NCBI GenBank assembly: GCA_964016885.1 | Contig: OZ024741.1 | Span: 225,246,001 to 225,310,000, forward strand | Origin: Eledone cirrhosa | Taxonomy: Eukaryota | Direction of reading: 5' to 3' | DNA: 64,000 bases | Part shown: in pieces, positions 6,460-62,919 of the stretch | How positions within the stretch are numbered: the stretch's first letter is position 1 | Layout of the letters: each line of letters opens with the position of its first letter | Notes under the pieces: generated by a model | What the model was told of the DNA's origin: nothing | Database searches by the model: none | What the model saw: only the letters and a program-made list of their open reading frames with translations | Made by a program: the position numbers and the translations under genes

Positions 6460-6635
6460 CTCTATATATATATACATTTTCGCTTTACATAGCTAAATAC
6501 AATAAATGTAATCTGAGTTTTTCGAATATTGATAATAATATTCGATTCATTTGCAATTATGTAAACAAGCCTCATTTTAAAGCCATGTCAGTAGAATGAG
6601 CCCCTCATTCTTGCTCTTGTGTTGGCATGTAAACA

Positions 6636-6685
6636 GAACTGCGGACACTAATGTTTCTGGGTATTACCCTTCATCAGTAGAGTTC
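6636..6685 (-). ncRNA. Minimal type I hammerhead motif (left arm)
   Basis: gaactcta-CTGATGA-agggtaataccca-GAAACa-ttag-tGTC-cgcagttc. Stem I is imperfect. Confidence 0.7.
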
Positions 6686-6755
6686 CCTGTTCACCTGCCA
6701 ACTCCCAGAGCTAGTGAAAATATATATTTTCTAAAATATTTGGCAGGTGAACAGT

Positions 6756-6804
6756 GAACTGTACTGATGAAAGATATACCCAGAAACATTAGTGTCTGCA
6801 GTTC
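6756..6804 (+). ncRNA. Minimal type I hammerhead motif (right arm)
   Basis: gaactgta-CTGATGA-aagatataccca-GAAACa-ttag-tGTC-tgcagttc. Stem I is 8 bp and stem II is degraded. Confidence 0.75.
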
Positions 6805-7138
6805 TGTTTACATTCCAAGACAAGATAAGAACGAGGGGCTCATTCTACTGACATGGCTTTAAAAATGAGGCTTGTTTGCATAATTGCAAACGAATCCAAT
6901 ATTATTATTAATATTCGAAAAACTCAGATTGCACACACACACACACACACACACACACACACACACACACACACACACACACACACACAGACACATATAT
7001 ATATATATATATATATATATATATATATATATATATATATGTATATATGAATATATATATATATATATATATATATATATATATATATATATATATATAT
7101 ATATATATATATATATATATATAGTTTTAATATAGATG

Positions 7139-7189
7139 AGATTCTACAGGACTAGAACTGTTTCATTCATTAGAAATCATCAGGAATCT
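7139..7189 (-). ncRNA. Type I hammerhead ribozyme
   Basis: agattc-CTGATGA-tttctaatgaat-GAAACAG-ttctagtc-CTGTA-gaatct. Same family as 55569-55765. Confidence 0.85.
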
Positions 7190-7352
7190 GGGTATCAAAA
7201 AATAAAAAAATCTTACTTACTGTGGTTACCTCCGATTCAACCCGGAATAACGTATATATATATATATATATATATATATACATTATGAAGAGAGAAGAAA
7301 CATTTAGATATAATTAGTAATAAAATGTATCATACCTAAACTGCTCCTAAAT

Positions 7353-7442
7353 TCCTCGACTACGTAGTTTCGTGGCATAAACAAAAACAATATATCATAA
7401 AGATATAGAGTCCTTGCGAGGTCTGCCGTCTTATCAAGAGGA
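7353..7442 (-). ncRNA. Hammerhead with U3:A8 covariant core (TTGATAA) and extended stem II
   Basis: tcctc-TTGATAA-gacggca...tgccac-GAAAC-tacgta-GTC-gagga. Confidence 0.8.
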
Positions 7443-7947
7443 TACCTCATTTTACTAGTCTCAAGAACGCGTCTACACGACGTGAGAAAGAATCCCAAAA
7501 GGCGGAGGGGGAGATAGTCACGCGATATAACGGTCGAGAAACATAGCTAAGCCTCTTATAACCCCGAAGAAAATACCACGGAGGCGGAGGGGGTATTTAT
7601 ATCGAGGCCGTAGAAGAGGTGGTGAAGAAGGCGAGAAGTATGAGTAATGGAAGCTTTCCAGCTGTCCCCACACTTCAAAGATTGCTCGACCAGAGGGAGT
7701 TATTAACGATATATTTAGAAACACACAGATACATGCGGACACACACATATATACATGAATGCATCCGCACCCAACTGTGAGTTAAGGGTGCCAACTTCAC
7801 CGATGTTGCTCAATGAATGACTGGGACAGACCAATTCAGTTGAACTAGACTGAACCAGTATCAGAGTTAAAAATACATTATGAAGAGAGAAGAAACATTT
7901 AGATATAATTAGTAATAAAATGTATCATACCTAAACTGCTCCTAAAT

Positions 7948-58710: not shown

Positions 58711-59864
58711 ACTTCACAGAATATTCTAGATTTCTGTGTAAGGTGACAAAATTTCCAATTCTGTAATATCAGTTGGTACTACATTTGATTAAAGTGAATA
58801 TCTAAAGAAAATGGAGAACTTTGATGTTTGAAAACACAATGACTGATTTCTTGCAATCATATCTGCACATTTCTCTCTGTTTGTTAGATTAAAGATAATG
58901 TCCTCTGCTATTCTTAAAAATGAGCCGAGCGAATATGATTTGAATGTTTGACAAATGTTGTAACCTTCAATCGTAGGCACAGAGCCACAATTTTGGACGA
59001 TGTTATATATCACCATTACGCTTATAGTAATCATTGTATTGGCACCGGAATGATATTAGGCAAAAGTTCACCACGGTTGGATTCGAACTCAAAGCATAAA
59101 TCGTCATAACGTAACATCTCTTTACGTTCTCAGTTGAAATCTCACGGAAGTCAATAAAGAAGAGATTTTACGAGTCTACTTAGAAATCTGTACGTTGTAG
59201 CCCGTTCTATTAGAAATAGGCAAATTTCCCTCAAATAACATACTTTCTTGATAAAATCAGGACACGTTGGGTACTATAGTCCTTGATATACTTCTTGTGA
59301 AGTTGAAAGTCAGACGTTCACAAGTCTTTGATTATAGTTCTGCAGAAGCAGGTCCGACCTGGGGCTAAAAAAATAAAACATAAAAAAAAAAATACTATCT
59401 AATCGGTTCCGAAATCTAAACACACATATAAAAGAATCATACACAAACTGTGCTTGTACAAGGATTAATACAAGATCAGAACCTATGATTAATATAATGT
59501 CACTTCCCATGAATAATACAAGAAGTATATATTTAGTGGGTGTAATGATAAATATTAGTTTAAGGATGTGAAGGTTTCTTTGGTTCATTTATGGTGTATG
59601 AAGATGATGAGTAAGTAGCTTCATGGTCGAGGAATCGCGAGTGAGTAGCTTCATGGTCGAGGAATGGCAAGTGAGTAAGTGAAGTGAGTCTCAGTGAGCC
59701 AAGAGAAGTTTTTTCATATTCGAGAAAACAAGTAGTTGTACTCGCTTGTTGTGGCGTGAAGTGATATTACAATGGGGCAAGATTATTTACATGGACAAGA
59801 ATGAACAAATGAACAAGACAACACTAATTTTAATGTTTTTATTTGTAACATGATATACAATAAT

Positions 59865-60047
59865 TGTTTCTACTTTAGGCACAAGGCCAGCAATTATCCA
59901 GTACATTACTGGTACTTTATTTTATCGACCCCGTAAGGATGAAAGGCAAAGTCAACCTCGGCGGGATTTGAACTCAGATCGTAAAGGGACGTAACTATGC
60001 TGGAAAGCATGGCGTCCGACCCTCTACCGATACTGCCAATCCACCGC
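59865..60047 (-). mobile_element. Full-length SINE with a 16-bp target-site duplication
   Basis: CATGATATACAATAAT occurs at 59849-59864 and 60048-60063. Confidence 0.92.
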
Positions 60048-60056
60048 CATGATATA

Positions 60057-60657
60057 CAATAATGCCCCGCTATATCGCGGTTCACTTTTTTGCGGTCCCG
60101 ATACATCTCGGATTTTTCTTTGGAGCGTTTCTAATTTCCTATCGCGATAATCCTCGCTACATCGCGGGTTTTTCGTTGGAACATATCTAATTTCTTATCG
60201 TGGTATGTACGTCTGAATAAAAAGGGTTACAATTTTAAACTTATTAAATAAGTTTCAATGTGGTTGAAGTGTATAGCGCAAGGAAGGGGTATGTTTTTAT
60301 TTTTCATTCCATTACTGTTTTACTGATTGTGTTTTTCTCTACTATAAACCTTTCATAGATTGACGGGAGATGTGCAGTGTATTACCAAGTGGCTAACGTG
60401 GCTGGTAATAGTCGTCATTGGTAACTAGTGGTGCGATGGTTGGTGGTAGTTTCTATACGATCGTTACTGGCTGTTTTTGGTGTTTAGATACAAAAGTGTT
60501 TTAATGAGTTTATATGTACTTAAAGCGTGTAGGATAGGTATTTTAAGGCTTAAACTATGAAAACAACGGTTGTCTTTATGGTCTCTCTATATCAAGGATT
60601 TTCATTTATCGCGGTTGGTTCTGGAACGTATCCCCCACGATAAACGGGAGATTACTG
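60057..60657. mobile_element. Tigger/pogo-like MITE
   Basis: TA|CAATAATGCCCCGCTATATCGCGG ... CCACGATAAACGAGGGATTACTG|TA imperfect TIRs, with internal TATCGCG sub-repeats. Confidence 0.75.
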
Positions 60658-61309
60658 TACTTCGAAATGATGCGCAACAATAAACAAGGTAAAACGTTGC
60701 ACGTATAGATGCAGTGTGTTATGGGTGCGAATGTAGAATACTATAGTAGCAATATTTATTAACTTATGTTGGTAGCAGGCTCAGCTAATGCTGGTCCTAG
60801 TAGGGCTGGCTAGCGAGTTTGTGTGTGAATATATCATGAGGCTTACGAAACAAGCTGTCTGCTGTAGAGTCGAATCAAACTGCATTTTGCGGAATCGAAA
60901 AGCTGACTAGAAGTTGAACATCTCTTGCATATATATAAGAATTAGGTTGCCCAGAAATATTAAAAAGTTGACCTCTTTTTGGATACTCTGACACCGCGAG
61001 CTTCCTACAAGAGAACATTATCTAGATTTTTGGCTTTGAGGTCACAGGTCAGTCTTTAGGTAGTCTTGCGTGGCAGGCTAAGAAAGCCATCGTGGGATAA
61101 ATATGTCGAGATTTCGATACATATAAGTATGAATAGAATGTAATGAAACGTGTAAAATGGGACAGTATGCCAACAAACAGGGTTATACAGAAACGGGTGA
61201 AAAAAATACAAAAACACCCCAAAAATCTGGGAAGCGTCACAATTTTTGGGGGTTTAAATAACTGTCGGAAAACCATAGATTAGTGTCGTACCTCAAAGAT
61301 ATTTCTCGA

Positions 61310-61500
61310 TTAACCCTTTAGCCTTTAAACTGGTCATAATAGGCCAGAATTCTCTCGCCTCTTTCTGTTCAAACCGGCCATAACCGGCTGGCTCATACCA
61401 ATGTTAATATATTGTTCTCAAAATATATAATATCAAAATCTCGTAGATTCGATATTATGTGAGATAATTATGTGAAATAAACTATTTACCATGAAAATAC
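61310..61500 (+). mobile_element. piggyBac-like MITE end fragment
   Basis: Starts TTAA-CCCTTTAGC. Homologous to 4500-4677. Confidence 0.5.
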
Positions 61501-62794
61501 AATAGCAAAAGAATAATGTAAATGCTAAAGAATTAAGAAGGCGTCGTTTGAAAGAGATGAACAACATGAGGGAAAGAATACTGTGTGCAGACGTCGCACA
61601 ACCAGAGTTGGACGAACATAATAAATGAATACCTGGCATAAAAAGGCTGTGATACAACATACGGACACAGAGATATACAGACACACATACAAGAACACAC
61701 ACACTCACTCACACATACACACAAACACACCGACATGCAAATATATATATTTCTTCGATTTTTTTCCGCCATGTTATTCGGCGATTGTTGTTTCATGACA
61801 TTATCGTTTATGAATTTGGTCTGATACGGATTTTTTTCATTGAACAACTGTGGACAACAACGTCGAAATAATTCTATACAACTACCATTCTATCGACCTA
61901 AATTCCTATTACGCACGCACATAAACACACACACACACATATATATATATATATATATATATATATATATATATATATATATATATATATATATATATAC
62001 ACACACACACACAGACATAGATATATATATGTAAATATCTATGTATGTATGTGTATATATATAGTTTTTTTTAAAAGTAGAAAAGTGCAGTGACCTCGAA
62101 GTTTCAGGTTGGTCGCTTCATCTGTCTACCATCTATCAACTACGTAAATAACCACCTTACTACAAAGTAAGCGTCAAAAGATCATATGCTTTATCATATA
62201 TATATATATATATATATATATATACGAATACACACGCGCACGAACACACACACATATACACACACATATATTATATAAACACTTTGATTTCTCTCCGCTC
62301 TATCAACGTATGACGATTCAGACGTGGCTTCGTCGTCTTGAAACCGCTGGTAGTATGGCGCTAATCTAACAGTTAATATAAATACCCAGCTTCTACTTTA
62401 CTCATTCATTGCTTTTCCTTTCGTTTGTACCCACAACTATATATATTATTATAATGAGTGACTACTGCCCGACGGCTGAATTCTTGCCGTTTCGACAGCA
62501 AGTAGATTCACTCATCGTCGAGTACTAAGCTGAACAATGCTCTGATTTGTGTAAAATGGTAACTCCGAATCTCTCTCTCTCTCTCTCTCTCTCTCTCTCT
62601 CTCTCTCTCTCTCTCTCTCTCTCTCTCTCTCTCTCTCTCTCTCTCTCTCTCTCCATATATATATATATATATATATATATATATATATATATATATATAT
62701 ATATATAACGAAGGAAATGTGGTAAGGAACCAGGTGGACCATAACGCACCAAAGTACTCAATACTTCCTATTATATATATATATATATATATAT

Positions 62795-62919
62795 ATAGGA
62801 GTAAGTAAGACCCCGACGGCTGAGCTCAAGCCGTTTCGACGGCTAATTCTGTACTGGCAGTACAGAATTAGCCGTCGAAACGGCTTGAGCTCAGCCGTCG
62901 GGGTCTTACTTACTCCTAT
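62795..62919. repeat. Perfect hairpin (62-bp arms, 1-nt loop) made of two hammerhead 3' halves
   Basis: GAAACggc-ttgagctca-gccGTC-ggggtc on both strands. Same family as 31630-31725. Confidence 0.92.

Follow-up and report, generated by a model that had tools for sequence, protein, structure and literature searches.

We analyzed a 64,000-nt stretch of Eledone cirrhosa DNA (the window; contig OZ024741.1, positions 225,246,001 to 225,310,000), which belongs to a 3.0-Gb genome rich in (TA)n. The window contains a series of foldbacks, inverted repeats whose left arm carries hammerhead ribozyme sequence on the minus strand and whose right arm carries it on the plus strand, so that the arms lie head-to-head with their 3′ ends facing outward. 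A short tail extends beyond one arm and not the other. We assign a probability of roughly 0.6 to the reading that these foldbacks are 5′-truncated insertions of Penelope-like elements (PLEs) in (TA)n, in which a tailed and a tail-less arm of one haplotype would have been copied by one enzyme–RNA complex priming from each cut strand.

Foldbacks and Penelope-like elements in the window

An earlier note on this DNA had reported six foldbacks, all with a minus-strand left arm and a plus-strand right arm. Their positions and polarity hold throughout, but two of them lack an intact hammerhead core. In every one of the six a tail is found beyond a single arm only. The first, of family F, has arms at 6507-6739 and 6742-6933 (91.5% identity over 189 nt). 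Its tailed arm is the longer of the pair and occupies 6477-6739 on the minus strand (tail 6477-6509; L151 span -233..+33; CTGATGA core at 6677, minus), and its tail-less arm (6742-6933, plus) has a hammerhead at 6764-6796. The second has arms at 8842-9172 and 9318-9648 (97% identity). The minus-strand left part (8670-9172) consists of the arm, with a decayed core, and of 8670-8841, which repeat-level depth suggests is its tail; the tail-less right part lies at 9173-9648 on the plus strand, where the spacer 9173-9317 is likely upstream sequence of the right arm, with the loose ends at 9171. The third (9972-10734, 93% identity over 177 nt) belongs to family D and joins a tail-less minus-strand arm at 9972-10298 (hammerhead 10203-10233) to a tailed plus-strand arm at 10311-10786 (hammerhead 10491-10513). 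This tailed arm opens with a copy of its own tail (10312-10374 equals 10724-10786) and therefore derives from a tandem unit.

The fourth foldback, at 51086-51243, is of family A and has two differences in 79 nt between its arms. The tail-less arm (51086-51164, minus; hammerhead 51124-51153) meets a tailed arm (51165-51308, plus; hammerhead 51176-51205; tail 51244-51308) that is the 3′ end of a Hydra-like element with reverse transcriptase (RT) and endonuclease (EN). The family C foldback at 55569-55696, with five differences in 63 nt, pairs a tail-less arm at 55569-55632 (minus) with a tailed arm at 55633-55764 (plus; hammerhead 55636-55674; tail 55697-55764). The last, of family E (62795-62996), is a perfect palindrome at 62795-62919 (0 differences in 62 nt) with its tail at 62920-62996 on the right.

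Other inverted pairs are present. A second family D foldback (33119-33703) has the same polarity, a core at 33398 on the plus strand and its tail on the right. The foldback at 35555-36063, in which no hammerhead was detected, consists of a repeat at 35595-36063 and an extension at 35555-35594 on the left only. In a family C head-to-head pair at 7124-7252 the two arms have no sequence in common: a tail-less arm (7124-7211, minus; hammerhead 7145-7183) is joined to a tail-only piece (7212-7252, plus). Two copies of a further unit (3339-3780 and 6021-6465, 96.5% alike) combine a minus-strand hammerhead with a short inverted tailed arm in the same polarity. Two units at 7281-8377, 99.2% identical and 595 nt apart, belong to a repeat family that forms a foldback elsewhere, and nested direct and inverted repeats with a one-sided extension lie at 32376-33083, where no hammerhead passed the descriptor described below.

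A type-I hammerhead descriptor was scanned over 664 kb, comprising the window and twelve 50-kb blocks at round-number positions; these blocks, 600 kb of unselected DNA, are also the basis of the genome-wide polarity tally. The scan retrieved 71 motifs (15 in the window, 56 in the blocks) against one in each of three shuffles. The motifs are not a chance product. By the descriptor, full type-I cores are present in the right arms of the foldbacks at 6507, 9975 (family D), 51086 and 55569, and in the left arms of those at 9975 and 51086. Neither arm of 8842-9648 passes (the left one reads CCGATGA), and there the GAAA, stem III and the cleavage triplet support the same polarity as in the others; 62795-62919 contains the 3′ half of the ribozyme only. 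Descriptor matches are found in families A, B, C, D, F and G and are predicted type-I minimal hammerheads in the pseudo-long terminal repeat (pLTR) of the element, where such ribozymes have been placed before (PMC4209133). At gathering scores Rfam gave no match among the window motifs. When single motifs were folded, one of seven had z below -2 and the rest were mostly no better than shuffles, as minimal hammerheads are expected to behave; folding was not used as support. Arms starting at the predicted ribozyme cut number about two in family A, one in C and none in B or G.

Longer copies run upstream into broken frames with RT and GIY-YIG motifs (family A, L042, and family G), and the foldbacks are therefore 5′-truncated PLE ends. 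In both families the RT is accompanied by a C-terminal GIY-YIG domain upstream of the pLTR, as in endonuclease-containing (EN+) PLEs, with an Atlas match to PF26215 at 0.97; a Pfam scan and a PDB search of the RT pieces found nothing. The inverted 5′-truncated copy with a one-sided tail is likewise a feature of EN+ PLEs. According to PMC8557442, the Hydra clade has a CxCX5C linker and a C-terminal endonuclease without CCHH, and the Neptune clade a CX2-5CxxC linker before GIY-YIG and CCHH in the endonuclease. Family A has the Hydra-type linker (CSCRKPEAC in L042), by which, rather than by a tree, it is placed. Family G has a CX4CxxC linker and the C-C-H of the endonuclease CCHH, the last H not being seen in this decayed copy. 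A decayed Hydra-like PLE with RT, linker and GIY-YIG also lies on the plus strand at 12400-15330 (12.4-15.3 kb; linker CNCHLPETC, again CxCX5C).

A decayed Neptune-like PLE in partial tandem occupies 37632-47110 on the minus strand (RT motif YLDD, CX4CxxC linker, GIY-YIG; cores at 37778, 41991 and 46293; tails at 41810-41846 and 46112-46148). Beyond it lies an inverted, 5′-truncated, tail-less copy of the Neptune-like family G (47412-48116, plus; hammerhead 47964-47992). The earlier note had extended its polarity rule to this array and its inverted copy. Their strands are as it described, but the pairing is unproven: they are separated by other repeats and (TA)n over about 300 nt, the identity between the arms is 91.7%, and neither outer end seems to have a tail, so that a single insertion event is not demonstrated. 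Two array units of 4302 nt (37990-46870) have four differences in 4580 nt, all within the first 170 nt. They are decayed and SINE-interrupted (SINE, short interspersed nuclear element) yet near-identical, and are therefore a recent DNA duplication or an assembly error.

Polarity and tails across the genome

The fixed head-to-head polarity extends beyond the window. Around the 56 block motifs, 24 rows of inverted repeats of at least 40 nt were counted. Fifteen rows, at 14 loci, are contiguous and head-to-head, and none is contiguous and tail-to-tail. Seven are head-to-head with a microsatellite in between, and two are tail-to-tail, both across a microsatellite (at 0.8 and 1.8 kb, arms 83-90% alike). 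Random polarity, set beforehand in the earlier note as the outcome that would overturn its rule, was not seen: all 14 loci with a contiguous hammerhead-bearing inverted repeat in the 600 kb are head-to-head. As a control, inverted pairs among 116 SINE copies number 8 and 21 by polarity within 3 kb, and 0 within 100 nt.

That the foldbacks are fold-back chimeras of sequencing or assembly seems very improbable. No listed read or contig spans a foldback of the window, and assembly duplication may account for the near-identical 4302-nt units. On the other hand, the arms differ by up to about 9%, the tail is one-sided, and insertions with this layout are spread over many contigs, at about 100 loci in all. 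Strand-switch joints in family F are also present in another study's Illumina reads (for example the opposite-strand joint 6706/6739, in 236 reads from four starts), evidence at family level only and from a type of library that makes chimeras too.

Five families were mapped, each on natural reference copies, and the best-scoring 30 loci per query were taken rather than a random sample. Single-arm queries identified 138 unique insertions, and 72 of these have two arms. Before any exclusions, 68 of these 72 have exactly one tail, three have two and one has none by script. With tail queries added, the set grew to 192 insertions (105 two-armed); excluding 15 ambiguous ones (split, nested or with an outer end lost) left 90 clean pairs, and three family B partners reaching beyond the reference were left unscored. 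Exactly one tail is present in 89 of the 90 clean pairs, and the remaining pair has two. The palindrome query is biased and was tallied separately; it gave one tail in 16 of 17. The family C tail query produced zero candidates, and there is therefore no tail-anchored set for C. Tails are 33-90 nt long. Among insertions without a partner, single-arm queries found 31 tailed and 35 tail-less ones; thus each site occurs alone as a 3′ end. In two insertions an inverted copy lies downstream, in each case a separate neighbor past a TA-rich run.

The one-tail rule bears on both routes that the earlier note had offered. Plain fold-back and self-priming duplicates the content of the first complementary DNA (cDNA) and therefore predicts two tails or none, which is contradicted by 89 of 90 pairs. 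Priming from both target strands remains the best-fitting route, but not from one common RNA 3′ end as had been supposed: in 89 of the 90 clean pairs the tailed arm begins where the tail ends outwardly and its partner at the inner limit of the tail. This nearly universal single tail makes it likely that one RNA was copied from two starts, one on each cut strand. This outcome is obtainable in two ways, by coordinated priming at both tail ends or by staggered resolution of a hairpin.

Both outer ends touch simple repeats in 80 of the 90 clean pairs, in keeping with the (TA)n insertion bias of EN+ PLEs. No target-site duplication was seen outside simple repeats in 107 pairs, and inside (TA)n such duplications are unreadable. 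At L015:1085-1746 and L125:1566-1610, short pieces of the tail-less end, each about 10-18 nt, recur between TA runs, a pattern that several restarts of priming could produce. In L044, L055 and L059 (beyond 1570), tail-less ends in TCT pass into (CT)n and then a TA run, the (CT)n possibly reflecting reverse transcriptase slippage that seeded a new microsatellite.

Arm lengths, shared template and the route of insertion

Either arm can be the longer one. Of 89 pairs, the tail-less arm is longer by >20 nt in 24 and the tailed arm in 11; by >100 nt the counts are 6 and 6. Detection by single-arm queries favors the tail-less-longer class. Both classes are also found in the young family B, whose arms are about 1% apart. 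Junctions are mostly blunt or have 1-6 nt shared, many leave a loop of 0-2 nt, and both junctions and arm lengths vary from copy to copy, so each junction was made anew. Most pairs overlap; non-overlapping arms are a minority (L031, L129 and window 7124-7252).

These lengths are relevant to a second way of making the pairs, built on the self-priming proposed in PMC3846280: fold-back on the first cDNA, or on an antisense template, would yield a hairpin, the endonuclease would resolve the open end with a stagger that leaves the tail on one arm, and asymmetric central deletions would follow. This route accounts for a single template, for near-symmetric junctions and, with a fixed stagger, for the one-tail rule. 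It is also favored by the excess of longer tail-less arms at a >5-nt threshold (40 pairs against 15), and by family G, where the tail-less arm keeps the central base in six of seven junctions that are one base short. A fixed stagger makes one class always longer, yet tailed arms are 190-630 nt longer in six pairs; because both classes can be longer, the route needs the later central deletions. In addition, the 0-2 nt loops are too tight for a hairpin, and tailed and tail-less solo arms exist without partners. We consider staggered fold-back unlikely, at somewhat better than one chance in four.

The two arms of an insertion share a template. In family B, the youngest, arms agree at 155 of 155 diagnostic sites (51 mismatches expected). 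Minor variants are shared by the arms of one insertion more often than by re-paired arms in families A (20 vs 6.5), B (14 vs 3.0), F (3 vs 0.6) and G (31 vs 8.7), with family C at 1 vs 1.2. The agreement in family B counts against arms made from two separate RNAs primed independently from the two target strands, as does the tail count, because with independent starts half of the pairs should have one tail, and not 89 of 90. Some A and G pairs do disagree at diagnostic sites, and three to five ambiguous candidates for head-to-head joins of different families occur among the 87 insertions without a same-family partner. Three of these (L049:880-940, L164:1225-1280 and L167:1085-1285) join different-family arms without TA and are either two-RNA products or nested insertions, the latter with a deletion. 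Overall, two separate RNAs are an improbable source of the pairs.

Even less probable is that the palindromes are mobile in their own right, as miniature inverted-repeat transposable elements (MITEs) moved by a transposase or as copies of a master palindrome. Copies are numerous (1475 first-look candidates), junctions recur in families G and C, and the TA flanks resemble Tc1/mariner target sites. However, junctions and arm lengths differ by copy, the ends are asymmetric, and the arms of longer copies run into RT-EN coding sequence. There is no fixed difference between arm classes except the junction base in G; therefore, no master palindrome was copied. We regard this explanation as largely refuted already.

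The 5′ ends of arms pile up in narrow intervals: 28 of 48 at -66..-64 in family C, 30 nt behind a TATA box; 25 of 41 at -193..-188 in G, about 31-33 nt behind a TATA box; and 38 of 84 at -188..-167 in B, beside TCACT at the edge. The pile-ups in C, G and B include solo arms, and the queries enrich arms of lengths near them. We infer that they may mark run-off at the pLTR start site, in which case arms of nearly equal length would need no fold-back.

Under coordinated priming, the endonuclease would nick both strands of (TA)n, and the two 3′-OH groups would prime at opposite limits of the tail, one at the outer and one at the inner. The RNA copied into the two cDNAs would overlap, with the follower displacing the leader or using a sister RNA from the same locus. 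Many would run off the shared RNA 5′ end at the pLTR start site, after which the cDNA 3′ ends would be joined, either bluntly or by a microhomology of a few bases. Success of one primer alone would leave a solo arm. A Poseidon PLE studied in vitro cuts both strands and extends them, begins at two sites that bracket the tail and is predicted to form a dimer (PMC11167929). Coordinated priming fits best; it agrees with these data and requires no extra step.

Several observations weigh against coordinated priming. Tail-less arms are longer more often, a bias that is strong in the family B tail queries, so fold-back from a tail-less template fits too. Tailed arms do not accumulate in a spike with their ends exactly at the inner start site, where 5 of 60 tail-query loci lie within -10..+5. 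Arms are discordant at 17 of 108 diagnostic sites in family A (39 expected) and at 14 of 57 in G (28 expected), seven of the latter being the junction base; family C, with 12 of 32 (10.9 expected), has no concordance signal. Concordance could also come from conversion between arms. Family A has a broad 5′ pile only and no TATA box at the expected distance. The mechanism is drawn entirely from finished insertions, at loci that are the best-scoring 30 per query. Palindromes may later lose part of their center, which could create tailed-longer cases; a literature search found no paper on central deletion of palindromes. Finally, the in vitro start site is alike on both strands (PMC11167929), a lack of strand difference that neither proves nor excludes pairing within one molecule.

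More tentatively, and at slightly less than even odds, coordinated twin priming may be the normal integration route of EN+ PLEs, with an asymmetric dimer on one RNA assigning the tail ends to the target strands and the short arm being run-off to the element's start site, comparable to a strong-stop DNA. If so, a single step would account for the pLTR boundary, the inversion of one pLTR and the one-sidedness of the tail. It would also take the place of self-priming on an antisense template as the model, and in such genomes many of the hairpins between TA flanks would be retroelement stumps, not MITEs.

The window contains other repeats. A mariner-like remnant at 29654-30547 has 100-nt symmetric inverted ends and transposase fragments. 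A 12-kb array of 18-nt and about 42-nt trinucleotide-rich units at 17400-29400, with >2600 codons open in several frames, is either Thr-rich mucin-like coding sequence or a satellite. An 84-nt tandem array of about 10 copies lies at 51533-52393. The SINE in the window we take to be similar to an octopus SINE.

Comparison with known systems

Tc1/mariner-type MITEs are short inverted repeats flanked by TA, and the foldbacks, with inverted arms between TA runs, plausibly mimic them. In contrast to the symmetric terminal repeats and fixed unit of a MITE, the ends here are asymmetric, with a one-sided tail, junctions and lengths vary, the ribozymes have a set polarity and the arms are linked to RT-EN. 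Motif-bearing hairpins are abundant (56 hammerhead motifs and 14 contiguous foldback loci per 600 kb), so that filing them as DNA-transposon MITEs would distort repeat annotation. We found no paper on such misclassification in a search that left most subscription journals outside its reach.

L1 twin priming, which Ostertag and Kazazian reportedly described in 2001, likewise starts the copying of a single RNA from each target strand and links the resulting cDNA ends head to head. Its reported product is an inversion without duplication, from an internal site that varies; in the foldbacks the second start has a fixed position, and overlap between the arms, the usual case, makes a palindrome.

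Non-LTR retrozymes (bioRxiv 10.64898/2026.07.22.740005; PMC4209133) share short type-I hammerhead units linked to PLE pLTRs. Tandem or partial tandem units are present in families D and F. Retrozymes are by definition head-to-tail tandems, with a hammerhead in every unit and circular RNA, whereas here the pairs are inverted, and A and G are ends of coding elements.

Canonical EN+ PLE insertions (PMC3846280, Arkhipova et al. 2013; PMC8557442, Craig et al. 2021) have the same head-to-head pLTRs, junction palindrome, tail at one end, (TA)n targets and pLTR hammerhead. Arkhipova et al. describe head-to-head as the most frequent arrangement, with palindromes at the junction and a tail on one inverted pLTR, and proposed self-priming on an antisense template; among the literature searched, which left out most subscription journals, that is the only paper found to combine self-priming with this layout. 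Craig et al. also present head-to-head inverted pLTRs with a one-sided tail (Fig. 2 legend) and name the origin of PLE tandem and inverted structures as an open question. The foldback families are thus new members of a published layout, and the polarity itself is not new. In these papers the tail is optional and the route self-priming or open, whereas here exactly one arm is tailed in 89 of 90 pairs, tails are 33-90 nt long and most units are stumps without an open reading frame. Literature searches, with most subscription journals and supplements outside their reach, turned up no published statement of the one-tail rule or of the tests on arm length and template.

The Poseidon PAc enzyme (Frangieh et al. 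2024, PMC11167929) likewise cuts and extends both strands at AT-rich DNA. The available text does not connect its two start sites with the paired arms of a single insertion, and the present families are Hydra- and Neptune-like. The counts given above (a single tail per pair, no fixed longer arm, a common template and 5′ ends at promoter-like sites) narrow the models and offer predictions for this existing in vitro system.

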